DNA of 64,000 bases from Bdellovibrionales bacterium (GCA_964230645.1 CAXRHT010000001.1:416001-480000), one strand, 5' to 3'; positions 1 to 57,475 are shown, numbered from the stretch's first letter. A program made the numbers and translations. The notes: generated from the sequence alone by a model not told the origin.

Positions 1-113
1 ATAAGCACTTGGTAAGGAAAGCAGCTACTAGCCTGGGAATTTAACGAAAAAAAACAAACAAGTAGAGAAAGAGAAAATAAGGGTAAAATTGGCATACTCA
101 GTGTCTTATTCAT
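1..113 (-). CDS. Partial CDS (5' end only), secreted protein continuing out of the window
   Basis: Manual translation from ATG at 113 gives MNKTLSMPILPLFSLSLLVCFFSLNSQASSCFPYQVL (signal-peptide-like). GAGGAGGA RBS lies just upstream. Follows the 138..1697 gene on the same strand. Confidence 0.75.
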   Translation of the reverse strand, partial: MNKTLSMPILPLFSLSLLVCFFSLNSQASSCFPYQVL

Positions 114-137
114 CTCTTCCTCCTCACTTATTAGCCC

Positions 138-1697
138 TTATTGAATAAAAGGTCTTACCTGTTTTAAATAAACCTGTCGTTGGCCAGAATCGAGGTCATC
201 CACCTTGAATTCAATATCTAAGGGAACGGTTTGACCTTGATCGGTGGAAAAAATCGGCTGAAAGTGCTCGCTTGCTTTTAGACTTTGAAAAACAAGGTCT
301 TTCACTTCCCCTTCATACATCACCTTATGGGGGTTGGCTGCTGGAAGAATGGTTTCCATATCATCGGCCACATTGGACTGACTGAGATAGTGGATTTGGT
401 AGAGCTCTTTGTTTAAGGGCTCATTGGCATCGTAAAGCACCAAAATCTTCTCTGACTGTACACCGGGCTCTGGGTTGGCGACACTATGCTCATCCCCTCT
501 CTGGGCCTCGATATAAACTCCAGCTCCACTGAATTGGTCATTCTCAGCTAAGTTCGCCGTTACTAAAACTCCATCCACTTCCTCGTTGCTGTAGGATGGA
601 TTGACTTGAACACCCATATAGATTTCGTCGTGAGCAATTCCGAAAGCTTCTCTCTCTTCGTAAGCTCTCAGGTTCCAAACAGAGCCCCAGACTTCTTTTA
701 ATGCCTCTTTTGCCTCTTTGAGTTTTTTCTTTTGTGAGCGCTCCTCGCCATCTTTCATAGGCTTATAAGACTTGGAGGAATAAAGGCCAGCACCATTGAA
801 GTTAGGAAGATCTTCTGCGTTGGTAGAACTTCTAAACTTCATTTTCATTTTTTCGCCACTGGGGGAAACAAAATCATCTAATTTTGCGACCAAAAGGCTT
901 AAAAAATCCTCGTCAATAACAGTCACGTCGGATTCAATAAGTTCCCTGATAACTTTTAATTTCTCATCACGATATTTGGTCGCCGAAACACGTCTCATTA
1001 GGGGGTCACGTAAAAGACCTTTGATGGCATCCTTTAAAATGGGGTTATCCTCAACAAACTGAGCGTAATAGAAAAATGGAATGGCCATTGAGGGGCGAAC
1101 CACTTCTCGCTCAGGGGTGTTCAAAGCGTAAGCGAGTTCAGCGTAGTTAGCCGCTTTCGATCCGACTTTGCTAAAATCCTGCCAACTGAGATCAGGCATC
1201 AAAAAAACTTGCTGTGTGTTGAGATCACTCACTAGCTCAATTTTCTCAGACCCAGCCACCTTCTGTTGATAAAAACTTTTCGCCTGGTTCTCATCGGAGG
1301 CGGAAACCGTGATGTTTCCATCGGCAAGGGCTACTAAATGGATGAAGTCTCCATCCCCAAAGCCTTCAAATATTGGATTCGACATTCCACCTTCAAGGGC
1401 TGAGATATCAACGTTGGGTATTTTTCTAGCGCGCGCTTTTATTTGCACGTGGGACAAAAGGCCCTGATTCATCAAAGTAATGGCACCAGCCACCACTGAC
1501 ATATTAAAAGGCATCTCTGCAAAAACAGGGATAGATATAGGAGAAAGACTTTCGTACTTATCGGACTCCTCAAGTATATCCTCGGCACTTAAGAAAACCA
1601 ATTGCCCATGGGCCTCTCCTGGATTCATAACTCTGGCTTGGCCAAAGACATTGAAAGAAATAAAAAGGGCTAAAACCCCTAAAGCTATTTTGTTCAT
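138..1697 (-). CDS. Secreted PEP-synthase/PPDK-family dikinase-like protein (N-terminal phospho-His swivel domain, C-terminal ATP-grasp nucleotide-binding domain)
   Basis: Signal peptide. QGLLSHVQIKARARKIP matches the swivel-domain SH..AR..IP motif. GSKAANY, FRSSTNAEDLPNFNGAGLY and DIEF...YLKQVRP are PPDK_N motifs. Confidence 0.85.
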   Translation of the reverse strand: MNKIALGVLALFISFNVFGQARVMNPGEAHGQLVFLSAEDILEESDKYESLSPISIPVFAEMPFNMSVVAGAITLMNQGLLSHVQIKARARKIPNVDISALEGGMSNPIFEGFGDGDFIHLVALADGNITVSASDENQAKSFYQQKVAGSEKIELVSDLNTQQVFLMPDLSWQDFSKVGSKAANYAELAYALNTPEREVVRPSMAIPFFYYAQFVEDNPILKDAIKGLLRDPLMRRVSATKYRDEKLKVIRELIESDVTVIDEDFLSLLVAKLDDFVSPSGEKMKMKFRSSTNAEDLPNFNGAGLYSSKSYKPMKDGEERSQKKKLKEAKEALKEVWGSVWNLRAYEEREAFGIAHDEIYMGVQVNPSYSNEEVDGVLVTANLAENDQFSGAGVYIEAQRGDEHSVANPEPGVQSEKILVLYDANEPLNKELYQIHYLSQSNVADDMETILPAANPHKVMYEGEVKDLVFQSLKASEHFQPIFSTDQGQTVPLDIEFKVDDLDSGQRQVYLKQVRPFIQ

Positions 1698-1698
1698 A

Positions 1699-3072
1699 TT
1701 AATTTCCTTTGTTCAAAATGACTGAAACTGAATTTAATGAGGAAGACTTCAACACATCATCACGAAACTGCTGCACTCCAGACTGACCACTGGCTTGGGA
1801 CCAGGCCGTCACTGTACTTAAAAACACATCATCCATTGTCATTGCAGCAACATCGATCACATCGACTAAAGTTGATGAAAGCGCCTCACTGTCACCAGAG
1901 CTCAGTTCGTCGTAAAAATAAGCCCAGTTATCCTCAATGAGAAAACCTTCGATAAATATAAGATTGAGTAAAGTTTGCGCCAATTCAGAGGACTCCACTT
2001 TCTCAAACTTTATAACCTCTTTATTAATAAAGTCTGTGGCACTAACGATTGTCGCTAAGGCCTTGGCTTTCTTGGTCCAGGCGACAGCACTTGTACTTAA
2101 AGCTTTTTTACTTTCCACAGCTGTTTGCGATAGCAGAAAAAGAGTTTTAACACTAACTCCTTGCTCCTCTACTGTTTGCGCCGCACCTACTAGGTCGGTG
2201 AGCCCTGAGGCATTGGCCAATTCTTTAATTTTTCCGGCATCGGCCTGAAAGTACTCGCTTAACATGCGGTGAATTTCCTGCAAATAGGTGTTGCCATTAG
2301 CCGCATACCAGGGGTTTTCTTCCAGATAGATTTCAATCATTGGCAAGACATTTTCTGATAAGTTGTTGTGAATGGCATTACGGATTTTGTAGAGGCCTCT
2401 TACCCGAGAATCAGAAGCCCCCCAGCGATTCACAAAATAATCGTAGGCCACTTTGATCATATCACGGCTTTTTTCAAGAGAAGACGAGTTGGTAATGGGA
2501 CTTTGTTTTGCCAATAGATATACAGGCAAAAATTGGAAGGAATCCTCAACAAAACTCAAATAATAACTGAAATAGTAATTGGCATATTCTTGCTCAAACT
2601 CTGAACCAGCGATCCCTCTTGTATTGAATCCACGAGTGATTCCTGAGTCTGGAAATTTAGATATGTAATATTTCTCAAGCACCCAGTGTTTTACAATTTC
2701 AACAGATTCACTCATCCTGGAGGCTCCCACTGACATAAGAGCCTCATGATCTAAAGAAAATGATTGAGCACCGTCAAAAATCGTCTCGCTCATAAGGTTG
2801 TAGTAATTTGTAGTAAATAGGTTACCGGTATAAAAGCCATGCTCTGTAGCAAGAGTTTCAGCCACCTCGTTTCTATAGGCCGCCTGAAAAAGAAAGTCAC
2901 CAGAAGGAGCGCCTGATAAAACTTTCGAACGCCCTCTTGTCCCTTGTAGATAATTGTAGCCAAAGGGGCCTTTCCTTGTATTTTCAATTTCACTGAAAAT
3001 TGATTCTGGACTTGCAGCTACAGTCGATGTGGCGAGCATTAGAATAAAAGTAAGTACAATTCGATACATCAT
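1699..3072 (-). CDS. Secreted, probably alpha-helical hypothetical protein
   Basis: 457 aa ORF with signal peptide (..STVAA|SP). Stop is 1 nt from the dikinase start, so the two are tightly coupled. No family recognised. Confidence 0.8.
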   Translation of the reverse strand: MMYRIVLTFILMLATSTVAASPESIFSEIENTRKGPFGYNYLQGTRGRSKVLSGAPSGDFLFQAAYRNEVAETLATEHGFYTGNLFTTNYYNLMSETIFDGAQSFSLDHEALMSVGASRMSESVEIVKHWVLEKYYISKFPDSGITRGFNTRGIAGSEFEQEYANYYFSYYLSFVEDSFQFLPVYLLAKQSPITNSSSLEKSRDMIKVAYDYFVNRWGASDSRVRGLYKIRNAIHNNLSENVLPMIEIYLEENPWYAANGNTYLQEIHRMLSEYFQADAGKIKELANASGLTDLVGAAQTVEEQGVSVKTLFLLSQTAVESKKALSTSAVAWTKKAKALATIVSATDFINKEVIKFEKVESSELAQTLLNLIFIEGFLIEDNWAYFYDELSSGDSEALSSTLVDVIDVAAMTMDDVFLSTVTAWSQASGQSGVQQFRDDVLKSSSLNSVSVILNKGN

Positions 3073-3078
3073 ATTTCC

Positions 3079-4917
3079 TTAGTCAATAAGTTCTAGGACT
3101 TCTTGTTTTTCTTGTTCAAAGGCGTCTTTCCCACAGTCCTCACTGTTGGAGGTGGGCGCACAGCCTTTCACACGTCCCATCAAACGAACAAGGCGCATGC
3201 CCTTTGTTGAGTTTCCGCTCGATTGCATCCCAGAGGTCGTAATGGGACTATAAAATTGCACTTTGTCTCTTTCGTAAGTTTGCTCATAAAGCGGGAAAAC
3301 CCCTTGAGCCACAAATGAGGTTTTTACTCTTTTTTCTTTAAGATCCATATAGGAAGGAAAAGAAAGGCTTGGGTCAACGAATTCAAACTGCCCTGAGACA
3401 GAGTTAAATTCAAACACACGATTATCGCCATAGAGTTCTTGATAAAATTCGTATTTATCATCCATTCCAATATTAAGATCCTTTCCATCTCTTTTTGAGA
3501 GGCCACTGGAACCTTGAGTGTCGTAACTGATCATATACTCAACACCAATCACTTCGAGAGTTCCGTCACCATCGATGTCGTAAAGATCAAAATCCTCGGA
3601 ATCGTTTCCAAATTGGAAAACCTGTTTCATTTTGTCGTTTTCAACGGGCATCAAATGCCTCATTTCCCAAACGTGCCCGAGAGCCAACCGCAAGCAGCCG
3701 CTTGAAACTCCTCCCCGTTTTACTGCCCAGAAATGCTCATGTTCAGAGGGAGCATTGAGAAGCTCTTTAATTTCTCTATTAAAGTTTGATCCATAAAAGC
3801 GAACGGCTGGATTATGAAAACCATTGCCGATTCCTTCGAAATCCATCTTGGGAGCCCAGCCATAGTAAGGCTCTTTTCTAATATGATCGACTTCATGATA
3901 GGAGCGATCTAAGAAAGGCCATAAACCCGGAGTTGCAAAACGAGGAATACGATTGCCAAATTTATCTTTGGTAGTACCCTTATAACTCCCTGTCGGATAA
4001 ACCGCAGAAAACTCAGGATAAGTAAGATAACACTGAGAACCCTCGCAGTGGATCGGCTCTCTCCACTCTCCATTAGCCCCTAAAGTTTTAAACTTAAATT
4101 TTTGTTCAGTCAGTGTGGTGAAAAGGCTTAGAGCTTGAGCTTGAAACTCCGCTTCGGCTTCAGAGAGAGCTAGATTAGCCAAAGCTTGCAAATCTTCGAC
4201 AAGCTCGTCTGTCGGCTCCTCGGTATAATTTATTCGCCCCCAAACGAGAGTGTTGATGGCCTGAATAGTCTCCTCACTTCGACGAGTAAGGACTGATTCA
4301 ACAGAGTCTCCGTCGAGAATTTGTGAGAGTGTCTTTTTCCAGCGTGTGAACTCAGCATTGAGATCAAGATTGACAAAGAAAACACGCTCGGTATTAAGTT
4401 GTTTAACGAGTTTTAAGCTCTCTTGATAGAGCTCTTTGTCGTTCAAATTGCCTTGTCTATAGGATTGAGTCAGAGTTTTTATTTGATAAACAGGAGAATC
4501 AATCACGCTTTGAAAATGACTCAGTTGCGGTAGAAGTGAAGCATCTTCAGGATTGATATCCAGGGCAGGACGTTGGCCGTCTTGAGAGGTGGTCATTTCC
4601 TGGTAAAAAGAAGATCTCGCTTCAAGATCAAAAAGATAATCCATAATTGTTTTTTCATCCAGGAGAACACTCACTCGCGTCTGGTTTCCACGTGAAGTCC
4701 GAATGTGAATTCTCTCGGGAGACTGACTTCTTGGAGCAAAGCCTGTGTAAAAACTGGGATAGTAGTGGCTGATTCTTCCTTCTCCACCTTTCCAGCTTGT
4801 ACCCCAGATAAGCAACGAACTGTTGTACTGCTCTAAAGGAGTTTGGCTTTGAGCCCATTGGACGTTAGATAAAATTAGGACAAATAAAAATACCTGTTTT
4901 AGGTAAAACATAGACAC
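3079..4917 (-). CDS. Secreted protein with divergent L,D-transpeptidase (YkuD-like) catalytic motif
   Basis: Signal peptide. GNGFHNP...RGGVSSGCLRL resembles the YkuD H...S(H)GC(I/V)RL motif. Also carries a DIDGDG Ca-binding-type loop. Confidence 0.6.
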   Translation of the reverse strand: MSMFYLKQVFLFVLILSNVQWAQSQTPLEQYNSSLLIWGTSWKGGEGRISHYYPSFYTGFAPRSQSPERIHIRTSRGNQTRVSVLLDEKTIMDYLFDLEARSSFYQEMTTSQDGQRPALDINPEDASLLPQLSHFQSVIDSPVYQIKTLTQSYRQGNLNDKELYQESLKLVKQLNTERVFFVNLDLNAEFTRWKKTLSQILDGDSVESVLTRRSEETIQAINTLVWGRINYTEEPTDELVEDLQALANLALSEAEAEFQAQALSLFTTLTEQKFKFKTLGANGEWREPIHCEGSQCYLTYPEFSAVYPTGSYKGTTKDKFGNRIPRFATPGLWPFLDRSYHEVDHIRKEPYYGWAPKMDFEGIGNGFHNPAVRFYGSNFNREIKELLNAPSEHEHFWAVKRGGVSSGCLRLALGHVWEMRHLMPVENDKMKQVFQFGNDSEDFDLYDIDGDGTLEVIGVEYMISYDTQGSSGLSKRDGKDLNIGMDDKYEFYQELYGDNRVFEFNSVSGQFEFVDPSLSFPSYMDLKEKRVKTSFVAQGVFPLYEQTYERDKVQFYSPITTSGMQSSGNSTKGMRLVRLMGRVKGCAPTSNSEDCGKDAFEQEKQEVLELID

Positions 4918-5103
4918 CTCTTTTAGTATTAGGCGTCATATATCTTGTCGACGAGTCACATGATATGAATAATCATTAAAGAGTATATTTTTCATGTTCG
5001 TTGGGCCTGGTTTTTCTTTTTTATTTCGAAGACTTAGAAAAATACCGTCGTTCTTTTTTTTAAGGATGGATTAAAGTCTAAAAGACTTTTTCCTTAAACG
5101 ATT

Positions 5104-5898
5104 CTACTCAGCTTTTAGAAAGGCCGGCAGAGCTCCAGAAAAATCATTCTTTTCTAAGTAAAGGGACTCTTCAAGACTCTTCTCATATTTTGAAAACGAA
5201 CGGCGATTAAGACCAAAGGTTCGAATCAAATCGGCCATCCAGCAGGGCACTTGCCTACCAGCTTTGAGCTCTAAAATCACAGAAGAGAAGGACTCACCAA
5301 AAACAGAGGTTACGTCGTAGTGACACATCTTTTTAGGATCCGGCTGAACTGTGAAGCCAGGTTCTTTTTGGTAGCAAAGGTCTCTATCAAAAGTCACACG
5401 GGCGTACTCATCCACTCTGGAGAAAAAGGCAAGACGATAATATTGAGTCAGAATTTTAGGTTCGACGTTGAGGATACTAAAGCTATGAAAAAACTTTTGA
5501 AAATTTCCTTCATCAGAGACCTTCAAAAGATCATAGTTTTGCCTTCCGGCAAGGATATCCGCCCATTCTTGAAAGCTTGTTTTCGAACGAAGCTTATCGA
5601 CCATATCACCATGTTTACATTTTTTTTCAAAGAAATAGGGAGGCTGACTGCCATCGCCGTACGAGCGTACTCGTAAATTAAAGCGGTTAAATCTTTTTAC
5701 CTTTTTGTTTTTAAGAAGATCGAAATTGAAGGTATCCAGGTAAAGACTATTAACCTGGTAATAACCATCGGGGGATTTTTTTGAAAAAGGATCTTGTTCG
5801 CAGTAGACTTTGATGTAGTCACAAATGGGTTGAACCATTTCAATGGGGATTGAGTATTTAAGCTCTCGGCGGACAAGACGAGTCTCTCGATCAAACAA
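5104..5898 (-). CDS. VTC-domain (CYTH-like) polyphosphate polymerase domain protein
   Basis: Motifs RRELKY, VNSLYLDT, RFNLRVRSY, FFEKKCK, RVTFD, ILELK and FSKY are typical of bacterial VTC proteins. No signal peptide. Confidence 0.9.
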   Translation of the reverse strand: MFDRETRLVRRELKYSIPIEMVQPICDYIKVYCEQDPFSKKSPDGYYQVNSLYLDTFNFDLLKNKKVKRFNRFNLRVRSYGDGSQPPYFFEKKCKHGDMVDKLRSKTSFQEWADILAGRQNYDLLKVSDEGNFQKFFHSFSILNVEPKILTQYYRLAFFSRVDEYARVTFDRDLCYQKEPGFTVQPDPKKMCHYDVTSVFGESFSSVILELKAGRQVPCWMADLIRTFGLNRRSFSKYEKSLEESLYLEKNDFSGALPAFLKAE

Positions 5899-5980
5899 TT
5901 TGTCACCTCTTGGACAGGAAACTAACTGAATCTTGACATAAACCTCAAGCTGTTCCCTTGGTATTGAATATTTTTCAGCT

Positions 5981-6007
5981 AAAAAAAAGCCTCCTTACGG
6001 AGGCTTT
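5981..6007 (-). terminator. Rho-independent terminator after the kinase-like gene
   Basis: Minus strand reads AAAGCCTCC-GTAA-GGAGGCTTTTTTTT. Confidence 0.8.
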
Positions 6008-6019
6008 ACAATTCAGAAA

Positions 6020-7549
6020 TTAAAGAGCGGAGCAATCAAGAGACTCCATCTGAACGCCATCGCGTGGAAAGTTATCCACGTCGTTAAGGTCAAATTGGAT
6101 CTCTGGACACTGGGCTCTTAATTTTTCGGCCACATTGTGAGTTCTCTCTACAAAACTCTCCAATGTCTTCTCATTAAGGTTTAAGTTCGTGGCCATCCAC
6201 TGATAAATGGGTCCTGCGGCTTGCAGGTCACGATCGAGCTCCATGAGCTTTTCATAGGTTTTTGTCGCCATATGATGAATATCCTCAAGCCAATCCGCTC
6301 TTTCTGGAAAATTGGCGTATTTACCAATCGTCGCTCCAGGGTATCCGCTGTAATCTCTTAGGCCAGCATCGTTATCGTTGAGGAAGGTTCTTTGAATAAG
6401 GACAGGTTCCGAACCAGGCTTAATGTCAGCCACCCAATCTTCCTCGGGTAAAGTAATTCCTGAGGCCGCCATTTCCTCACGACTCATCTCTTCGAATTCG
6501 TCTCTCTTCTCGCGCTTGTCTTTCACTTTGTCGTCGATCGTTTCGTAATTCCAGTACCAACGATAATCGATGTTTCCAACTCGGTCTTGCTGACCAAAAA
6601 TAGAATCAAGAACGATCATTTCTGACATTTCTCTCATCCAAAAAAGCATCTGTAAGGCGGGAACATCCCCTAGGGAATTAGCCATCTCACGAGAGGAAGC
6701 CTTTGCTTTTGCCACACCTTCTTCAACAGCTTCTAAAAGTGGTTTATCACTTCTTAGTGCGATAAAGGGGGCTACGTCATCACGCAACTGCTTGTGCTGA
6801 CCTGTTCCCCAGGAAGCTGTGCGAGTGGAGTTAATTTCAGCTCCGTAGCGCTCTCCTGGCCCCTTGATAAGAACACCATAGATTTTTGCGCCATCGGCGG
6901 TTACAAGCTCTTCTGTGGGTGAGTAATCCTCTGGATTTTGCCCAACGATATCAAGCCATCTCCAACCATTGTGAACCTTTTGACCTGAGCGAGTGTTTGC
7001 TAACCCCACAGGAACCACGTTTTCATAAATATACTGACGGTCTATCTCTCTATAGACAGAGACTGGGACTTTGATCTTCGTATCCAGAAGTCTAGAAACA
7101 TGATAGTAAGCTAACGATGATGGCGAATACGTTCCGCTGGTGCCACCGCCAAGGCTTGAGCTTCCCTGGTTCATAGAAACTTTAAACTTAGCGAGGTTAT
7201 CGACATCCTCCCCCTCGTCTTTTTGCCCGCAGTACTCTGAGCTCATGTACTCCTCTTTACTCATACCACTTTCACTGATTTCACGGACCATTGTGGCAGG
7301 GCTTGTGCTCCAAGTCTTTGGGCAAACCGCAAAATTCGGTGCGTAGATATTAGCGCTACAGAATTCGATTTCGTCTTCTAAATCGTCTTTATCGTAATCT
7401 CCCCCTGGAATTTGAGGCAAAGAACGGCAAACCTCATTCACTCCATTGGGAGAAACATAGGTCATTTCAAAACCGTGTGCTGAAGCTTCTATGGCACCTA
7501 ATAGACTGATTGTTAAAACTGATATTATAAATTTCATCTTATCATCCAT
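6020..7549 (-). CDS. Secreted atypical kinase, Fam20C/Four-jointed/CotH-like
   Basis: Signal peptide. LAKFK (candidate beta3 Lys), LAYYHVSRLLD..VPVSVYRE, EMIVLDSIFGQQDRVGN (catalytic loop; cf. Fam20C DFLMGNMDRHHY) and FLNDNDAG (cf. LDNGRG). Confidence 0.7.
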   Translation of the reverse strand: MDDKMKFIISVLTISLLGAIEASAHGFEMTYVSPNGVNEVCRSLPQIPGGDYDKDDLEDEIEFCSANIYAPNFAVCPKTWSTSPATMVREISESGMSKEEYMSSEYCGQKDEGEDVDNLAKFKVSMNQGSSSLGGGTSGTYSPSSLAYYHVSRLLDTKIKVPVSVYREIDRQYIYENVVPVGLANTRSGQKVHNGWRWLDIVGQNPEDYSPTEELVTADGAKIYGVLIKGPGERYGAEINSTRTASWGTGQHKQLRDDVAPFIALRSDKPLLEAVEEGVAKAKASSREMANSLGDVPALQMLFWMREMSEMIVLDSIFGQQDRVGNIDYRWYWNYETIDDKVKDKREKRDEFEEMSREEMAASGITLPEEDWVADIKPGSEPVLIQRTFLNDNDAGLRDYSGYPGATIGKYANFPERADWLEDIHHMATKTYEKLMELDRDLQAAGPIYQWMATNLNLNEKTLESFVERTHNVAEKLRAQCPEIQFDLNDVDNFPRDGVQMESLDCSAL

Positions 7550-7563
7550 TTGTTAGTGTGAAA

Positions 7564-8223
7564 TTAGTGGCAGATTTGACTACGCTGCTCGGCGGTTAAC
7601 TGAAACTCAGGAAAAGGATTAAATTCGTCGATCTTCTCAAACTGACGACGTCTTCCCTTAGCACCGAGTGAGTCGTAAATATCAATGGCATCCCAGTTGC
7701 TCTTAGCCTGGTCTTTTGAAATTCCACAAAACTGCATTAAAGCCATTTGAGCTAGAGTGTTTGAAGCATGAACTCCGTAATAGCAATGCAAATAAACAGC
7801 CCCTGCAGATCCATTTATAACATCGTTATAAAGATAGCTCATAAGGTTATAAACCCGACTCCCTCCCCCACCGTCACGGGCTTCACCAATGTAAACATAG
7901 TCAAGGGCATTGGATCCACAGCTAACAGAGGTATCAACATCAATGTAAACCGAATAAATTCTGGAGAAGTCATCAGCACACATCTGGTTGGTCATTGAAG
8001 AGCTTAGTAGCGCTCGGCGCCTGTCAGAGCCACCAATATAGAATGCGCCTTTTAAAATCGCTTTGGGACGTGTGTCCCCGGAATTGTAAGAGGACTGACT
8101 AATCTCCGTACTGCTTCCTGGATTATTGAAAATATTCTGAAAATGACTGATTTTGTCTCGAAGGCTTTGGCTGAATGCCAATTGAGAAGATAACAGAATT
8201 GCGAAAAAGATAATTCGGTTCAT
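7564..8223 (-). CDS. Secreted Cys-phosphatase-fold (PTP/DSP-like) protein with atypical active-site loop
   Basis: Signal peptide. VYLHCYYGVHASNTLAQMALMQFCGISKDQA follows the DSP pattern, but CX5R is CX5A. Confidence 0.6.
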   Translation of the reverse strand: MNRIIFFAILLSSQLAFSQSLRDKISHFQNIFNNPGSSTEISQSSYNSGDTRPKAILKGAFYIGGSDRRRALLSSSMTNQMCADDFSRIYSVYIDVDTSVSCGSNALDYVYIGEARDGGGGSRVYNLMSYLYNDVINGSAGAVYLHCYYGVHASNTLAQMALMQFCGISKDQAKSNWDAIDIYDSLGAKGRRRQFEKIDEFNPFPEFQLTAEQRSQICH

Positions 8224-8347
8224 AAGGGGGGCTCCTTTTAATAGCTTAAAAGGTCCTTATAACACTCGACTGTGGCACGCCTAGCGAAAGTGATTTTGTT
8301 AAAATCTTTCTATGTACTTATGAACTAATTTCACCGAAAAAAAACTA

Positions 8348-9493
8348 CTAAAGGTCGTGCCTTCGGTAGATTATCCTACGAGATGAATCGAGGAAGTGTG
8401 AACTAGGAAACTGACTACATCGTTGACACTTACTTGTATTGCCTGAAGGCATATCAATCACCTCAGGGAACTGACTGTCATCAAGAATTTCGTAATTGTC
8501 AGAGGTCCTTTGCACCAGTGACCAGTTACCAAGGCTATCAAATTCAACAACCAAAAAGGCCTTCGGGCTTCTAGGAAGGCTTGAATTCCTCGAAATATGA
8601 TAGCGAGATCCACTTCCTAAGAGGGGAACAGACACATACTCCGTATGATGATCTCGTCTCCCAGGGTAGTAAACGTGGGAATGTCCACTAAAAAAGACAT
8701 CCACTTTGTGTTTTTCAAAAAGGTCTTCCACCTTTTTTAAAAAGCTCGAATTACCTCGAGACACATATTCCGTTTCTTTTTTAAAAGCAAAAGGCAATAG
8801 AGGCACATGACCATAGATAAATCGCAACTTAGCGTCTTTTTCTTTTGCAAACACTTGTTCCATCCAATTCAAAGTGCTGTCAGACCAGGCTCTCACTGCT
8901 GTATCATCAAGACTGATAAAAAGAGCGGACCCAATGCGGAAAGCGTATTGGAAGGGAAAGTTCTGTTCTACACCTTCAACCATCTTCATATTGGAGGCCA
9001 CAGAAAGAGGGTCTTCTCTTTCCCAAGACTCTTTATAGTGTTTTCGTTCTGTTTGAAAACCTATATGGGCGTCATGATTTCCCGGTGAAGGAAAAACAGG
9101 AATTTCACTTTTAAGCATGGGCCGTGTCACATTGGAGTGAAAAGAATCCCACATTCCTCGGTAGTCCAAACCGCTTTTTTGACCAGCCACCATATCGCCA
9201 GTAGATATTACGAAATCTATTTCCGAATCCCTATCTGTGATGTAGCTAACAGCTCTTTTAACATCTTGCCCATAGGACTTTGAGCCGTAAGATCCGTTCA
9301 TATCGGAAATAATTCCAAAACGATAGTTTTTAACAATGGGATCCGGTTTGTCACCAGGCTCATTGGCATCACCTGGGTCTTGACCATAACCTTGATCACT
9401 TTGATCAGAGCTATTTTGGTCGGATTGATCCGCAGGCTTAGAGTGACTGCAGTGGACGAGACTAAAAAATAATAAAAGAATAAAGATACGCAC
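8348..9493 (-). CDS. Calcineurin-like metallophosphoesterase lipoprotein
   Basis: Lipobox LVHC, acidic low-complexity linker, and motifs ISDMN, GDMV, GNHD, YGH, GHSH. Confidence 0.9.
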   Translation of the reverse strand: MRIFILLLFFSLVHCSHSKPADQSDQNSSDQSDQGYGQDPGDANEPGDKPDPIVKNYRFGIISDMNGSYGSKSYGQDVKRAVSYITDRDSEIDFVISTGDMVAGQKSGLDYRGMWDSFHSNVTRPMLKSEIPVFPSPGNHDAHIGFQTERKHYKESWEREDPLSVASNMKMVEGVEQNFPFQYAFRIGSALFISLDDTAVRAWSDSTLNWMEQVFAKEKDAKLRFIYGHVPLLPFAFKKETEYVSRGNSSFLKKVEDLFEKHKVDVFFSGHSHVYYPGRRDHHTEYVSVPLLGSGSRYHISRNSSLPRSPKAFLVVEFDSLGNWSLVQRTSDNYEILDDSQFPEVIDMPSGNTSKCQRCSQFPSSHFLDSSRRIIYRRHDL

Positions 9494-9500
9494 GAAGTAA

Positions 9501-9527
9501 GTATCGGGATGTTCGTTCTTTTAATTA
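9501..9527 (-). promoter_or_regulatory. Candidate sigma28 (FliA)-like promoter
   Basis: TAAT-N15-CCCGATAC on the minus strand, ending 7 nt before the GTG start at 9493. Confidence 0.4.
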
Positions 9528-9588
9528 AGTCCAGTTCAGAACCTAGGTCGAGCCCTTGACACTTCTTTAACCAAAGTCTGTCTCATTC

Positions 9589-10752
9589 TCAAACTTTAAG
9601 GACTTCAGTAAGATAATTTATATTCTCTTTGTTGAGCTCTCCTTGGAGAAAAAGGATTTTCAAATAATTAGCGTGGATATTGAGTAGAGTCTCTATTTTT
9701 TTAAAACGCAACTTAATGTATTTCACTTCGTCATCAATACTTGTTTCAAGGTTTGAAAGAGAGCTCGAAAACCTTTGCGCATTCTTACTTTTCATAGGGA
9801 TCATTTTGTAGATTTCAAATTTTTCGATAAGCCCTAGGGTTTCAGCTTTCACCTGTGTCATCTCATCTTGTTTCTGCCATTTTTCCTGACGTATTTGAAT
9901 TTGATCTTGTAGATAATCGGTTTCTGCTTGTTTAAGTTCGGTGCTATCGGAGAGAAAAGGAACCCTTAAGGACAATTGCAGCTTATGATCTTCCAAACGG
10001 CGGATATCTCTTTCTCGACTCATTTGTACAAACTTGATAACCTGCCAAGATTCAGACTTTTTCTTTTTGAATTCCATCTCAGCCAATTCTTTTTTTTCGT
10101 TCTCAATTTTAAAATCAATTTCTTTGGCAGCTTTTAAAGATTGCTTGAGTCTCTCAGGATCTGCCAATTTTAAATCTTTTAAGCTTTCAAGAATTTCCCT
10201 GACCTTGTCATCTTTTTTAATATTATCAAAAACGCTTTTATATTGAGTTTCCATCTCAGCAAAGAAACCAAGATTTTCAATAAATCCATTAAGATCCACT
10301 TCACTATTTTGGGAAATGGCAGAGATTCTCTTTCGAGCTTTTTCAAAAAGCTTTTGATTTTGCTTTAAAACTTCATGATTTTTTAAAACACCCCACAGAA
10401 TTAAAAGCTTATTGTAGGCATTCAAACGATTTAAATTTTCCTGGTTACCTTGGGTCAACTTTAAGATTTTATTGTGTTTCTCAGTCAGTCGTACTTCGTT
10501 GGCTAGACCGAAAATTGGCTTTAAACCAAACCGGACCGATTGGTCACTGAAGACACCATCCTCATCGGTCTCAATTCTCACCTCTGTTTCATCAAGAAAT
10601 GATAAACCTGGATTCCATGCCGATTTGGGAGATACTCTTTTGTTTTTTATCTCGGATTCCACCCACTGAACTATTGGGTCCTCTTTTGCCTCGCAAGTTA
10701 AGGCGGACTGCAGGAAGACTAAGAATAGAATCAAGGCAGAAAGACTTCTCAC
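9589..10752 (-). CDS. TolC-like outer membrane efflux protein (divergent)
   Basis: Signal peptide, then two repeats of short beta-hairpin-like segments followed by long coiled coils. Overlaps the stop of the HlyD gene. Confidence 0.55.
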   Translation of the reverse strand: MRSLSALILFLVFLQSALTCEAKEDPIVQWVESEIKNKRVSPKSAWNPGLSFLDETEVRIETDEDGVFSDQSVRFGLKPIFGLANEVRLTEKHNKILKLTQGNQENLNRLNAYNKLLILWGVLKNHEVLKQNQKLFEKARKRISAISQNSEVDLNGFIENLGFFAEMETQYKSVFDNIKKDDKVREILESLKDLKLADPERLKQSLKAAKEIDFKIENEKKELAEMEFKKKKSESWQVIKFVQMSRERDIRRLEDHKLQLSLRVPFLSDSTELKQAETDYLQDQIQIRQEKWQKQDEMTQVKAETLGLIEKFEIYKMIPMKSKNAQRFSSSLSNLETSIDDEVKYIKLRFKKIETLLNIHANYLKILFLQGELNKENINYLTEVLKV

Positions 10753-11618
10753 TGATTGCCCTCAAAGGAAACCATAACCTTTTCTCCCAGATAGAAATCA
10801 TTGCCTTTTGGGAGAGAAACTTTAATTTCTCGGCCGTATATTCTCATACTCGGATCTTTTTGAAATCTTTCTGGAAGCTCAGTCAGCATCGAACCGATGG
10901 AAACGATTTCTCCTTTCACCTGATAGTCTCTAGAGATCGATTTAATGTTTGAAGCTCGGTTCTGTGTTAATGATGCGAAACTAAAGGATTCAGGGATATA
11001 GGAACGCACGAGAGTCGGTTTTAAATGAAAGATCTCTAGAAGCGGCTGAAAAGGCGGAATGGTTTCTGAGGCACTCACCTGTAATTCGCCCGCAAGGCCA
11101 TCAATCGGTGAAACCACTTCCAGACTTTTTTCCTCGGAAGCCAAGGCTTTTTTATTTTCCACAAAAGTAAGAAATCGCATCTCTAGAGGACTTAGACTTT
11201 GGTTCTTTTTTCTCTTTTCTAAGAATACGACCCACTTGTCTTTATCCCACCTTCGGCCGGAGTGGATATTGAGCTCCATCAGTGCCGTTTGCAGTTCTGT
11301 CTCATTGGCATATTGGCGAGAGGCCAAATCCTCGCGCTTCAAACGAAAAAGAGGATCTCCTTTGGAGACCAGTTGTCCTGACTCGACCAATATTTCATCG
11401 ACCACCACAGAGTCTTTAAAATTGATGGTAAAACCTCTGGCCTCGGTCACTCCTGGAATTCGATTTCCTTGGCTCAAATCATAATGAAGTATCAGATAAA
11501 TCAAACCGGAGGCCAAAACTAGTCCCACTAGCAGGAAATAGTTGGCGACAATAAAATCCCAGAAAGGATTGTTGCGACTTGTTTTGAAATTGATTTTTTT
11601 GTTACTTTCCTCGTTCAC
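10749..11618 (-). CDS. HlyD-family membrane fusion (periplasmic adaptor) protein
   Basis: One N-terminal TM, lipoyl half-motifs VDEILVESGQLVSKGDPLF and VVSPIDG, hairpin helix, C-terminal barrel ending GEKVMV. Confidence 0.85.
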   Translation of the reverse strand: MNEESNKKINFKTSRNNPFWDFIVANYFLLVGLVLASGLIYLILHYDLSQGNRIPGVTEARGFTINFKDSVVVDEILVESGQLVSKGDPLFRLKREDLASRQYANETELQTALMELNIHSGRRWDKDKWVVFLEKRKKNQSLSPLEMRFLTFVENKKALASEEKSLEVVSPIDGLAGELQVSASETIPPFQPLLEIFHLKPTLVRSYIPESFSFASLTQNRASNIKSISRDYQVKGEIVSIGSMLTELPERFQKDPSMRIYGREIKVSLPKGNDFYLGEKVMVSFEGNQ

Positions 11619-11628
11619 TTGCCAACCC

Positions 11629-12309
11629 TTAAATATCCGTACTACTTTGCTGCACCATCAACTGCAGTCCCTCTAAATTTTCAATGGCTTGAAGTTCCTG
11701 GATCAATTGTGCCTGCTGCTTTTGATTTTTAAGTTTTACCTGATAGGAGTAATCCACTCTCTGCCCCTGGGCGAGATCCCTCAACGTTACTAGAGCGAAT
11801 TTTCGGCAGTTTTTTGAGAGAATCCCCGCAACACTCTCTTGGTTGTTACCTTTAGAAGGAATATTGAACCTTAACAATCCATCAAACTGTGTGCTTTGAG
11901 AAAGAGGCGTTTTTGATAGGATAAAGATCACAGCGCAAAAACAAAGAACGCCTGAGATGGTTATTGAGTAGGCGAAAACTCCACAAGAAATACCAAGAGC
12001 CAAACTGGCAAAAAGGAAAAACATGTCTTTAGGGTCTTTTAAATTTGAGCGGAAACGAAGAATGGAAAAGGCTCCCATCATACCGATACCACGAGCCAGA
12101 CTTCCATCAATGGCCATCATTGCGATCGCCGAAACGATCGGACTTAGAACCAAGGACTGAATAAAGTTTTTTGAATAACTCAAACCCTCGTAGGTAAACA
12201 CGTAGGTTAAAGCCAGAAGACTTCCAACAATGAATGCAAAACAGACACCCTGTAGAGACGTCCAGAAGCTTGTGTTCATCGTCGCATAATTGAATGCATC
12301 AATACCCAT
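11629..12309 (-). CDS. DUF4956 family membrane protein
   Basis: Several TM helices, SLARGIGMMGAFSILRFRSNLKDPKDMFFLF signature, and an ACT-like C-terminal domain. Confidence 0.9.
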   Translation of the reverse strand: MGIDAFNYATMNTSFWTSLQGVCFAFIVGSLLALTYVFTYEGLSYSKNFIQSLVLSPIVSAIAMMAIDGSLARGIGMMGAFSILRFRSNLKDPKDMFFLFASLALGISCGVFAYSITISGVLCFCAVIFILSKTPLSQSTQFDGLLRFNIPSKGNNQESVAGILSKNCRKFALVTLRDLAQGQRVDYSYQVKLKNQKQQAQLIQELQAIENLEGLQLMVQQSSTDI

Positions 12310-12630: not shown

Positions 12631-12966
12631 TTAAGCGTTACTACACTTGTCAGCGCAGTAAGCCCCACCGAAATCCTTTTTGCAAGCGTCAATACAAACA
12701 GGCATGGCGTCGGCTTTACACCCGGGGTTTTCTTTGACGAAATCATCCCAGTAGTTATCCATACAATAGGCTCCGCCGTAATCTTCCATACAAGCGTCAA
12801 CAAGCACATTTAAACCCTCAACCTTGCCATCGCAGTAGGATCCTGAAACAGAACCGTCTCCAACACACTGGTAGGTTTTTCCATCAACTGTTACTGATAT
12901 TTCTTTGGCCTGAGCTGAAAGGCCCATCGCCAGCGCAAAAAACGCTACTAAAACAATTCTAAACAT
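12631..12966 (-). CDS. Small secreted Cys-rich protein
   Basis: Signal peptide (AQA|K), 9 Cys, internal repeat DAC..D(Y/F)GGAYC.D, GGGGG-type RBS. Confidence 0.85.
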   Translation of the reverse strand: MFRIVLVAFFALAMGLSAQAKEISVTVDGKTYQCVGDGSVSGSYCDGKVEGLNVLVDACMEDYGGAYCMDNYWDDFVKENPGCKADAMPVCIDACKKDFGGAYCADKCSNA

Positions 12967-55139: not shown

Positions 55140-56576
55140 ATGTCTCAACCTGTGCTTAGTTTTGTTTCCGGAAAAATGACAGAGTCCCAACAGGGGGCCA
55201 GTTGGGATAATATCAATCCCGGCACCGAGGAAAACTTAGGAAAAGTTTTTTCTATTTCAGAAGGAGAGTATGAAAAGGGAATCACTGAAGCTTTAAAGGC
55301 TCAAAAGGAGTGGGCGGAGAAAACCGGGACCGAGCGTGGGCGAATTCTACACAAAGCCTCGCTCTTACTCAGAGAAAAGACAGAAGAGCTCGCCCTCATC
55401 GAAACAGAGGACACTGGAAAGCCCCTCTCCGAATCTTTAACGGTTGATATTGAGTCCGCAGCTGACGCCATAGAGTACTTCGCTGGAATCGCGTCAGCAC
55501 TTAAAGGTGATTCCTACCAATTGGGTGGCGACTTTGTTTATACTAGAAGAGAGCCTCTGGGGGTCGTTGGAGGAATTGGAGCTTGGAACTACCCCATTCA
55601 AATTGCCGCTTGGAAATCGGCCCCAGCTCTTGCCGCCGGTAACGCCATGATCTTTAAACCCAGTGAAATGACCCCGAGAACTGCCCTGGAGTTGGCAAAA
55701 GTTTATAAAGAGGCGGGTCTACCCGATGGACTTTTTCAAGTCTTTCAAGGGGATCACCACGTGGGTGAAAAAATGGTTAAAGATGAACGAATCCATAAAA
55801 TCTCCCTTACAGGAGAAGTCGGCACCGGGGTTAAGATCATGGAAGCCGCAGCCCCCACACTAAAACATCTCACTTTTGAGCTTGGCGGTAAGTCCCCCAT
55901 GCTGGTTTTTGAAGACGCCGATCTTGATCAAGCTGTCGAGGGTGCTATGGCCGCAAATTTTTTCACCCAGGGAGAAATTTGCTCCAATGGCACAAGAGTC
56001 TATGTGCATGAAAAAGTTTTAAATGCTTTTACAGAGAAACTCCTCGCAGAAACAAAAAAATTAAAACTCGGTGATCCGATGGATAAGACCACCACGGTGG
56101 GCGCTTTGATCTCAAAGGAGCACCGTGAAAAAGTGCTCTCTTATATCGAGAAAGGAAAAGAGGAAAAAGCGGAGCTTCTCACAGGAGGTAACACTTGGGG
56201 AGAGAAGGGCTATTTTGTAGAGCCCACAATTTTTGCCAACTGCACTGATGATATGACTATCGTCAAAGAAGAGATCTTTGGCCCCGTTCTTAGTCTTCTA
56301 AAGTTCAATGACGAAGAAGATGTAGTAAAACGAGCTAACAACACGCCTTACGGATTGGCCGCAGGTCTTTTTACTAAGGATTTAAACCGTGCTCATAGAG
56401 TTTCAGGTCAACTAGAAGCTGGAATTTGTTGGGTGAACACCTATAATGAAACCCCTGTCGAAATTCCTTTTGGAGGCTACAAGATGTCAGGCTTTGGAAG
56501 AGAAAACTCGGAATGGGCTCTGCTTGCCCACACTCAAATTAAAACAGTGTTTTTGAAAGGTACCAATAAAAAATGA
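55140..56576 (+). CDS. betB: Betaine aldehyde dehydrogenase
   Basis: GIGAWNYPIQIAAWKSAPALAAGNAMIFKPSE, ELGGKSP, ANFFTQGEICSNGTRV, EEIFGPV. Confidence 0.88.
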   Translation: MSQPVLSFVSGKMTESQQGASWDNINPGTEENLGKVFSISEGEYEKGITEALKAQKEWAEKTGTERGRILHKASLLLREKTEELALIETEDTGKPLSESLTVDIESAADAIEYFAGIASALKGDSYQLGGDFVYTRREPLGVVGGIGAWNYPIQIAAWKSAPALAAGNAMIFKPSEMTPRTALELAKVYKEAGLPDGLFQVFQGDHHVGEKMVKDERIHKISLTGEVGTGVKIMEAAAPTLKHLTFELGGKSPMLVFEDADLDQAVEGAMAANFFTQGEICSNGTRVYVHEKVLNAFTEKLLAETKKLKLGDPMDKTTTVGALISKEHREKVLSYIEKGKEEKAELLTGGNTWGEKGYFVEPTIFANCTDDMTIVKEEIFGPVLSLLKFNDEEDVVKRANNTPYGLAAGLFTKDLNRAHRVSGQLEAGICWVNTYNETPVEIPFGGYKMSGFGRENSEWALLAHTQIKTVFLKGTNKK

Positions 56577-57475
56577 AACTCTTTATTCTCTCCTCACTGA
56601 TCGTATCAAGCTTTGCCATGTCTCCTTCTCCTGAAGGACTGGAAGTTGTAGAAGAATACACTCTTCCTACTGTCGAAATCTCAGGGATGGCTTGGCGCAA
56701 AGATCCCACAACGTCAAAACGGGAATTGGTTCTTGTGAGTGACAGAGAGTACAGCCTTTACATCGTTGATTGGGAAAATAGAAAACCCCGCTTTCAATTT
56801 AGAAAGGTCGATCTATCGAGCTTAAAAAGTGAAGAGGACGGCGAACAGTCGGAATGGGAGTCGGTTTTTAGTGATGAATCAGGAAGAGTCTATATCGTAA
56901 AAGAAGAGCCTGGCCGAATCCTTGTTCTCTCCTCAGACTTATCTCGGGTTGAAAAAAGAATTTCCATCCCTAGGCAATCTCGTGCCGAAAACTCTGGTGC
57001 TGAAGGCCTTTTTCCTCTGAACAATGGCCATTTTATTGTGGTAAATGAAAAAGAACCGTTAAGAATTGTTGAGCTCGGCGTCCAAGGGGAAAAGCCTAGT
57101 GGTTACACATCTTCTTTAAATATTGAAAACTCAGGAAATTTTCCAGTTGAAAAAATAGGAGCCTCCCTTAAAAGCCTCAAAACCTGGGCTCCAGACGCAG
57201 ATACCCTTGAGAAATTGAAAGACTCTAGTGGTATCAATGCTGACACTGAGAGTAACCTTTATCTTCTCAGCGATGAGGAAAAAGTCATTGCTCTTATCGG
57301 AGACTCTCTCACTGAATCTCAAACAGAGGTGAGTGCTACAAAATTCTGGAAGCTTCCTAAAAAACTAAAAAACCCTGAGGGTATGGTCATTGATTCCAAT
57401 AAACAGCCTATTATTGCTATCGATAACAAAGACGATGACAAGCCAAACTTGTTTCTCCTCTCCCCTCTTCAATGA
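56573..57475 (+). CDS. Secreted SdiA-regulated (YjiK)-like beta-propeller protein
   Basis: Signal peptide; repeated blade motifs EISG, EWES, ENSGAEG, DSSG..LYLLSDE, NPEGMV.D. Overlaps the betB stop (ATGA). Confidence 0.75.
   Translation: MKLFILSSLIVSSFAMSPSPEGLEVVEEYTLPTVEISGMAWRKDPTTSKRELVLVSDREYSLYIVDWENRKPRFQFRKVDLSSLKSEEDGEQSEWESVFSDESGRVYIVKEEPGRILVLSSDLSRVEKRISIPRQSRAENSGAEGLFPLNNGHFIVVNEKEPLRIVELGVQGEKPSGYTSSLNIENSGNFPVEKIGASLKSLKTWAPDADTLEKLKDSSGINADTESNLYLLSDEEKVIALIGDSLTESQTEVSATKFWKLPKKLKNPEGMVIDSNKQPIIAIDNKDDDKPNLFLLSPLQ

Follow-up and report, generated by a model that had tools for sequence, protein, structure and literature searches.

The window analysed here is a stretch of 64,000 nucleotides (416001-480000) of contig CAXRHT010000001.1 from a Bdellovibrionales bacterium with a genome of 3.78 Mb. 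Its left end holds ten complete open reading frames (ORFs), all on the minus strand between positions 138 and 12309, and an eleventh that starts at 113 and exits the window; GC content is even throughout the locus. We conclude that the locus is a composite of three modules (A, B and C) rather than a single operon. Module B encodes a member of an unannotated family of predicted exported kinases, one family that appears to have three alternative supply partners (DUF4956 with VTC and a duct, a DUF4956 homologue alone, or an NTT-family carrier), VTC being the dispensable component. The original prediction, made from the sequence alone, was of a single system in which VTC and DUF4956 make and export polyphosphate (polyP) as phosphoryl donor for two exported kinases. 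The reading that we prefer, tentatively and on sequence grounds, is that a Fam20-fold kinase and a split dikinase would phosphorylate the envelope using ATP shipped out of the cytoplasm; DUF4956 is the candidate conduit for this donor, and VTC would be an optional addition.

Module A comprises the genes for DUF4956, an HlyD-like adaptor, a protein in the TolC slot and VTC. Module B comprises a metallophosphoesterase, a DSP-like Cys protein and the Fam20-fold kinase, followed by a terminator-like hairpin. Module C comprises an L,D-transpeptidase (LDT)-like enzyme and a dikinase divided between two genes, one for a helical half and one for a His-ATP-grasp half. At this locus module B is inserted inside cassette A, between the TolC slot and VTC. 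Library searches with the window proteins, against Pfam (down to E 0.1) and NCBIfam, gave matches at the locus to DUF4956, HlyD, metallophosphoesterase, VTC and PPDK_N. In order of transcription, the features are:

11629..12309, minus strand: DUF4956 membrane protein with four predicted transmembrane (TM) segments and a soluble C-terminal domain (PF16316, 54 bits; weak MgtC match)
10749..11618, minus strand: HlyD-like periplasmic adaptor (PF13437, 33 bits; TIGR01730, E 2.4e-11)
9589..10752, minus strand: helical protein, predicted to be exported, that occupies the TolC slot, the TolC label being doubtful
8348..9493, minus strand: calcineurin-like metallophosphoesterase, predicted lipoprotein (PF00149, 64 bits; metal motifs conserved)
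7564..8223, minus strand: predicted exported DSP/PTP-like Cys protein (weak profile matches; P-loop Arg missing, HCYYGVHAS)
6020..7549, minus strand: predicted exported Fam20/PI4KII-fold kinase of 509 aa, unannotated family (predicted model and structural matches)
5986..6007, minus strand: intrinsic-terminator-like 9-bp hairpin with T-run between kinase and VTC (region 5970-6019 folds at -17.5 kcal/mol)
5104..5898, minus strand: VTC, cytoplasmic, predicted polyP polymerase (PF09359, 141 bits against a cut-off of 23)
3079..4917, minus strand: predicted exported Cys enzyme of 612 aa with an LDT-like motif (invariant H368 and S405-x-G407-C408-x-R410)
1699..3072, minus strand: predicted exported helical protein of 457 aa, N-terminal half of the dikinase (76 homologues; fusions)
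138..1697, minus strand: predicted exported dikinase, a putative phospho-His region followed by ATP-grasp, with no phosphoenolpyruvate (PEP)-binding barrel (PF01326, 65 bits)

The kinase family and its proposed supply partners

The kinase had been described as Fam20C-like, and a Fam20-like fold was recovered in the predicted AlphaFold2 (AF2) model (predicted local distance difference test score, pLDDT, 94.6). The best structural match was Hydra Fam20 (Z 16.3, root-mean-square deviation 4.2, 294 residues aligned), followed by Fam20C (Z 14.7), PI4KII-alpha (Z 14.5) and CotH (Z 9.2), and the top rows of a Foldseek search with the model were all Fam20 (best E 1.5e-3). The kinase matched nothing in Pfam (E 0.1) or NCBIfam, the Fam20C model included; a profile search of solved structures retrieved no Fam20 chain, and none of the 120 kinase relatives listed carries a Pfam domain. 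The family is large: of 8000 candidates scored, 578 are relatives, and the 50%-identity representatives include 583. In an alignment of 105 sequences, K78, K123, D322, R323, N326, D392, D394 and six Cys are present in at least 95%, so that the catalytic Lys and Asp motifs are kept (K123 in 95%, D322 in 97%, R323 in 100%, N326 in 97%, D392 and D394 each in 98%). Further Lys/Ser/Thr motifs are invariant.

Export was judged by a hydrophobicity rule alone, which asks for a basic residue with a hydrophobic stretch after it. All eight predicted exported proteins of the locus pass this rule and VTC fails it, and the same division holds across families: 81 of 94 kinases, 70 of 76 helical proteins, 16 of 18 dikinases, 14 of 18 LDT-like enzymes and all 25 Cys proteins pass, compared with 1 of 26 VTC proteins. 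The earlier statement that every enzyme except VTC has a signal peptide thus stands by this rough measure, and predicted export of the kinase fits its conserved Cys residues and hydrophobic N-termini.

Two exported phosphatases had been proposed as erasers or recyclers. The metallophosphoesterase has conserved metal motifs. The Cys protein gave 21 weak profile matches, nearly all to DSP/PTP proteins (DUSP21, PTPMT1 and TpbA, E 0.03-0.1; best 0.026), and residues H146, C147, G150, V151, H152, S154 and R70 are invariant. In every family motif counted, however, Ser or Ala replaces the Arg of the CX5R/HCxxGxxR P-loop, and because this catalytic Arg is missing family-wide the label of phosphatase is unproven.

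Partners of the kinase were compared in the best 80 of 272 kinase loci. The commonest neighbours are the Cys protein (64 loci), the phosphoesterase (62), a DUF4956-like membrane protein (52) and a beta-propeller (47), and the kinase, phosphoesterase, Cys protein and DUF4956-like gene occur together in 51 of the 80, across distant groups. In roseobacters the membrane partner is a DUF4956 homologue (hhalign probability 93.7), and the propeller neighbour matches the HlyD-fused propeller domain (probability 97.8). VTC lies in the flanks of 2 of the 80 loci. Whole-genome searches, made for 50 of the loci, found VTC above cut-off in seven, six of them Bdellovibrionales. A DUF4956-like gene stands beside the kinase in 30 of the genomes tested, and 29 of these have no VTC, including two complete chromosomes (those of loci L034 and L042); the remaining one has VTC elsewhere in its genome. 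A divergent VTC or CYTH protein as a substitute in roseobacters was considered and rejected, a purpose-built VTC profile matching in 0 of 5 genomes (with no positive control) and CYTH in 1 of 5. The roseobacter kinase loci (flanks of L014-L087) also lie amid secreted proteins with SH3/META domains (41 loci) and HGSNAT-like acetyltransferases (14 loci).

In 3 of the 80 loci the kinase is instead followed directly by the gene for an NTT-family carrier homologue (L054:2377-4071, L076:11371-13089 and L083:2282-3970), and in L054 and L076 the phosphoesterase then follows it. Their matches to TIGR00769 (E 2.6e-7) and to PF03219 (E 7.5e-4) both score below the curated cut-offs. Among solved structures the best match is 9j3j, the plastid ADP,ATP carrier (E 2.9e-5), and the alignment covers the C-terminal motifs. 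An Ig-like (He_PIG) domain lies at the C-terminus of all three homologues, and searches of the three draft genomes found neither VTC nor DUF4956. NTT as a general partner was rejected: none stands beside 80 metagenomic dikinase loci or occurs in the host, and the 6 of 401 Bdellovibrionota genomes that have one all lack the kinase.

The VTC cassette and the modular locus

Related triphosphate-tunnel enzymes are hydrolases or cyclases. The VTC protein of the locus is a soluble protein of 264 aa that consists of the VTC domain alone, with no SPX domain and no TM segment, and a profile search found Vtc4 as the best solved match (E 4e-19). Cryo-EM of the yeast complex describes nine residues that bind metal and triphosphate, one Lys of which is missing in the inactive Vtc2/3 (10.1101/2023.01.27.525886, as far as the accessible part of that preprint goes). 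Counted along the alignment to 8i6v_E with the site list of that source, K14, R76, R78, K93, Y153, R155, E210, S236 and K237 correspond to Vtc4 K200, R264, R266, K281, Y359, R361, E426, S457 and K458. All nine are kept, including the Lys that distinguishes active Vtc4 from Vtc2/3. The family match and the complete active site uphold the identification as VTC; polyP polymerase activity is predicted. The host genome carries its own PPK1, and no PPK2 was found in it; since PPK1 is present, VTC is unneeded for a cytoplasmic polyP store.

Twenty VTC loci, mostly top-scoring, were inspected. The order DUF4956-HlyD-TolC slot-VTC recurs in 17, where VTC and DUF4956 thus form one directly linked cassette; two others are interrupted by contig ends and one has no TolC slot. 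Within DUF4956 (25 sequences), R85, F86, R87, D92 and D95 are invariant and R73 and K91 nearly so; no homology to the Vtc channel was detected. The TolC-like label fared less well: the gene is present, but OEP matched in 3 of 26 TolC-slot proteins (best E 6.4e-6) and not in the window's own, whose Atlas neighbours are unnamed, one cluster being 11% OEP. A beta-propeller matched in 15 of the 20 fetched loci, fused to HlyD in many relatives; HlyD is unfused here. A stand-alone predicted secreted SdiA-regulated/phytase-like beta-propeller is encoded at 56573-57475 on the plus strand, 44 kb from the locus, and is homologous both to the HlyD-fused domain of relatives and to the roseobacter kinase neighbour.

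Other VTC loci hold further genes of interest. In L142:9212-12529, L146:8666-11995 and L141:12058-15510 the cassette adjoins an unannotated protein of about 1100 aa that is predicted to be secreted, that of L142 with no Pfam match. A second VTC-DUF4956 pair in genome G024 (L008:8737-11314) is followed by a predicted secreted CYTH-domain protein. In L150:3876-4418 (G362:C141) VTC has internal stops; this locus keeps kinase, phosphoesterase and Cys protein, and another VTC is present in the genome.

The distribution of the modules was surveyed in 401 Bdellovibrionota genomes, genes within 15 kb being counted as neighbours. The counts are 77 genomes with VTC, 65 with the kinase and 18 with the helical protein of module C. 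VTC and the kinase share 39 genomes, compared with 12.5 expected if they were independent, which related genomes are not. Cassette A neighbours the kinase in 22 of these 39 and neighbours module C in 6 of the 12 genomes with both; in the genus that contributes most of the former, two kinase paralogues take two different positions beside the VTC cassette. The kinase and module C are neighbours in 2 of the 14 genomes with both, this genome (G000) and G004. The kinase is found in 38 of 53 genomes of one family, often in several copies, and VTC is missing from 6 of the 18 module C genomes. The predicted co-occurrence of the genes therefore holds in part: the kinase and the dikinase module each have the cassette as a repeated neighbour, but the eleven genes travel as three modules.

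All ORFs, their strand and their order agree with the earlier description of eleven co-oriented genes, but these probably do not form one transcript. The hairpin with its T-run, together with intergenic gaps of 121 and 186 bp on either side of VTC, makes a single transcript improbable, and a T-run hairpin also lies 3' of the kinase in the relative G004 (locus L006). A sigma-70 promoter scan of the region found fewer sites than in shuffled sequence. One eleven-gene operon is thus rejected, given the terminator, the gaps around VTC and the way in which the modules travel independently.

The split dikinase of module C

The helical protein had been listed as a separate gene product; homologues indicate that it makes up the N-terminal half of the dikinase. 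The helical and His-ATP-grasp parts are fused, in 6 of the 18 genomes, into one chain of 939-995 aa, always directly after the LDT-like gene; a stand-alone helical protein was rejected on the strength of these fusions. The AF2 model of the helical half (pLDDT 94.9) gave no significant fold match, only four-helix bundles (Z up to 10.4 over 83 residues). A fold like that of glucan, water dikinase (GWD) was not matched by Foldseek, VIA-align or profile search, nor was any family. The order of helical, His and ATP-grasp parts presumably recalls the domain order of GWD.

The dikinase profile matches the ATP-grasp domain of PEP synthase (E 4.7e-22). Residues S82, H83, K181, R289, E295, D296, E496, Q513 and R515 are invariant in 18 sequences, and the full set of ATP-grasp residues is kept. 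The S82-H83 motif resembles what we take to be the swivel phospho-His motif, in a region with no library match. The chain stops after the ATP-grasp domain, in fused forms likewise, and no PEP-binding barrel is present. Split forms usually adjoin a beta-lactamase-like gene, which the host genome lacks. The His-ATP-grasp dikinases of loci L151-L230 form a broad family, 517 of 600 pattern matches being relatives; their N-terminal domains vary, and their N-termini are mostly signal-like. Among the 80 metagenomic dikinase loci inspected, 31 of them at least 12 kb, exported dikinases of other lineages stand beside VTC-DUF4956 in three (L159, L171 and L216), with CotH in L171. In that locus (L171:4426-13794) VTC, DUF4956, DUF2490, a CotH lipoprotein and two exported dikinases of 830 aa form one co-oriented run.

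The third protein of the module keeps H368, S405, G407, C408 and R410 in 18 sequences, at a spacing longer than usual. A His with S-x-G-C-x-R is, we presume, the L,D-transpeptidase (YkuD) motif. Neighbours in the Atlas are YkuD proteins (score 0.83, a lead only), and there is no Pfam or PDB match. The earlier label of L,D-transpeptidase-like accordingly keeps its motif but is weak in other respects. Peptidoglycan or muropeptides may be the dikinase target, as is suggested by the constant LDT-like and frequent beta-lactamase-like neighbours.

The phosphate donor, known systems and neighbouring genes

Secreted kinases such as CotH are known, although the periplasm is regarded as devoid of ATP. 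In the tentatively preferred reading, DUF4956 would form an inner-membrane pore, lined by conserved Arg and Lys, for a phosphoanhydride compound. When VTC is docked on it, it may thread polyP into the HlyD/TolC-like duct; without VTC, as in roseobacters, it may pass nucleotide, a job for which the NTT carrier would be the equivalent in L054, L076 and L083. The kinase would phosphorylate an envelope substrate from ATP, and the metallophosphoesterase, perhaps with the Arg-less Cys protein, would reverse this. The dikinase would move the beta-phosphate of ATP via His83 to a substrate held by the helical half. ATP is favoured as donor because the partner is exchangeable, the ATP-grasp site is intact and the closest solved folds of the kinase are ATP kinases; the PPK1 of the host and the Streptococcus intermedius deletions described below are further points in favour of this reading. 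An extended proposal, rather doubtful, is that DUF4956 is an unrecognised phosphoanhydride channel that replaces an ATP/ADP carrier and powers a periplasmic Fam20-like writer, phosphatase erasers and a peptidoglycan-phosphorylating, starch-dikinase-like enzyme, and that with VTC docked it also threads polyP through the TolC-like duct.

Several observations weigh against supply of ATP by a dedicated partner. Position 144 of the kinase, the likely equivalent of the alpha-C Glu site judging by the Fam20C motif, is Ser (74%) or Ala (21%). Two of the three NTT loci are 94% identical, so that about two lineages are represented; a search of 60 relatives of G087 did not find the kinase, though 29 of 61 have NTT genes, and no NTT match was found in any of the 65 kinase-bearing Bdellovibrionota genomes, the host included. 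A dedicated neighbour is not required, because 26 of these 65 genomes lack VTC and loci of the Thiothrix type have the kinase with no transporter nearby. No solved relative of DUF4956 was found. At 15 of the 20 VTC loci fetched, no kinase lies within 6.5 kb, and 18 of the 22 adjacent VTC-kinase pairs belong to one genus. PolyP made by PPK1 might also be exported in VTC-free genomes.

The polyP donor of the original prediction, made by VTC, exported by DUF4956 and the duct and used by both kinases directly or via periplasmic ATP regeneration, now seems unlikely. It draws on the complete Vtc4 site of VTC, on the cassette's recurrence beside the kinase and module C, on the two paralogue positions in one genus, on the unrelated VTC-DUF4956 pairs that flank exported dikinases in three metagenomic loci, and on a kinase with extra invariant Lys/Ser/Thr motifs and no alpha-C Glu. 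VTC is, however, missing from all but one of the genomes in which the kinase adjoins a DUF4956-like gene and from a third of the module C genomes, and it flanks few of the metagenomic dikinase loci; an NTT homologue fills the partner slot at three kinase loci, and the dikinase keeps every ATP-grasp residue. In Streptococcus intermedius, the accessible text of PMC12345266 reports that in artificial sputum medium deletion of SIR_1592 (the DUF4956-type gene, MgtC-like TM plus ACT) or SIR_1594 (CotH) lowers aggregation by more than half, and that text states no drop for deletion of SIR_1593 (VTC).

An equally unlikely account makes the locus a loose phosphate-economy island. The phosphoesterase, NAGPA, Cys protein and propeller would free phosphate from organic matter or prey, an MgtC-like DUF4956 would handle it and VTC would store or export polyP, the kinase and dikinase modules being separate and drawn in by shared regulation. 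The division into three modules, two of which a terminator separates, the rarity of kinase-dikinase adjacency, the many cassettes with no kinase, the several neighbours from phosphate-releasing families and the weak MgtC matches of DUF4956 agree with this. The constancy of the four-gene kinase group across distant lineages does not, scavenging leaves exported kinase folds with intact catalytic residues unexplained, and the genome already has PPK1. Delivery of the kinase and dikinase into prey, where they would use prey ATP and leave the VTC cassette a separate job, is quite improbable: the Bdellovibrionales are predatory, most genomes of one family carry the kinase, often in multiple copies, module C has wall-type enzymes and these genomes have no NTT, but roseobacters and gammaproteobacteria widely possess the same kinase trio together with a membrane partner of its own, and the phosphoesterase here looks lipid-anchored.

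Compared with known enzymes, the kinase resembles Fam20A/B/C and type II PI4K in its top structural matches (Z 16.3 to 13.2), catalytic Lys/Asp motifs, predicted export and disulfides; it differs in its identity of about 14% and in the missing Pfam match and alpha-C Glu, and PI4KII lies within 2 Z units. The dikinase shares with GWD and rifampin phosphotransferase ATP-grasp and the lack of a PEP barrel, and probably a substrate domain and phospho-His, whereas here it is predicted to be exported, is split between two genes, has a helical half with no solved match and has an LDT-like partner. The VTC of module A has the nine-residue tunnel site of the eukaryotic complex (Vtc4/Vtc3/Vtc1; 3g3q, 8i6v, 7ytj) and a small membrane-protein neighbour with conserved basic residues; unlike that complex it has no SPX domain and no fused TM helices, no homology between DUF4956 and the Vtc channel was detected, and its polymerase and translocation activities are predicted. 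NTT/TLC carriers (PMC5381601; 9j3j) are linked to the system by the homologues that fill the DUF4956 slot beside the same kinase family, but none is encoded by the host genome; NTT genes are widespread in free-living bacteria with roles unknown, according to the accessible part of PMC5381601.

A set of cotH, polyP polymerase and DUF4956 genes has been noted beside Gram-positive pel operons (10.1101/768473) and is listed in a Clostridium perfringens locus table (PMC2879425), in the parts of those papers available. The likeness lies in VTC and DUF4956 beside a secreted atypical kinase and hydrolase (10.1101/768473; PMC12345266, available parts). Here the kinase has a Fam20 fold, CotH (PF08757) has no match at the locus, an HlyD adaptor and a TolC-slot protein are added, two phosphatase-like proteins and the split dikinase module join, and no pel genes are nearby. 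In the accessible text those authors found the set at pel loci only, and a preprint on S. intermedius expects polyP to remain cytoplasmic (10.1101/2024.04.20.589940, available part). A search of the open-access literature found no paper joining Bdellovibrio, polyphosphate and VTC, no relevant title on bacterial Fam20-like secreted kinases, periplasmic polyP as a donor, bacterial VTC activity or secreted dikinases, and no description of this system. The VTC-DUF4956-kinase set is thus already in print without a function, and the swap of partners within one kinase family is observed here. A kinase family with three supply partners in culturable hosts such as Ruegeria and Bdellovibrio offers a direct test of the phosphate source. 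If the preferred reading is true, it would give a function to DUF4956, which occurs from Corynebacterium to Methanosarcina, and would provide bacteria with a counterpart of the Golgi kinases that a nucleotide carrier supplies; it may also reveal phosphorylation of the cell wall.

The eleventh gene, listed earlier as another secreted protein, is real and can be named:

1..113, continuing outside the window, minus strand: start of a NAGPA phosphodiester glycosidase, predicted exported, 275 aa (PF09992, 40 bits)

The full gene lies at L001:15286-16113 in the fetched stretch around the locus; no homologue was found in the other fetched loci, and the gene was seen at this locus only. Convergent with it is a predicted secreted peptidyl-arginine deiminase-like gene (L001:14114-15208, plus strand), and L001:2-2650 (minus strand) is the start of a fibre-like protein, very long and predicted to be secreted, that extends past the fetched stretch. 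A small Cys-rich predicted secreted protein with no family match is encoded at 12631-12966 of the window (minus strand) and has its own terminator-like hairpin at 12603-12583.

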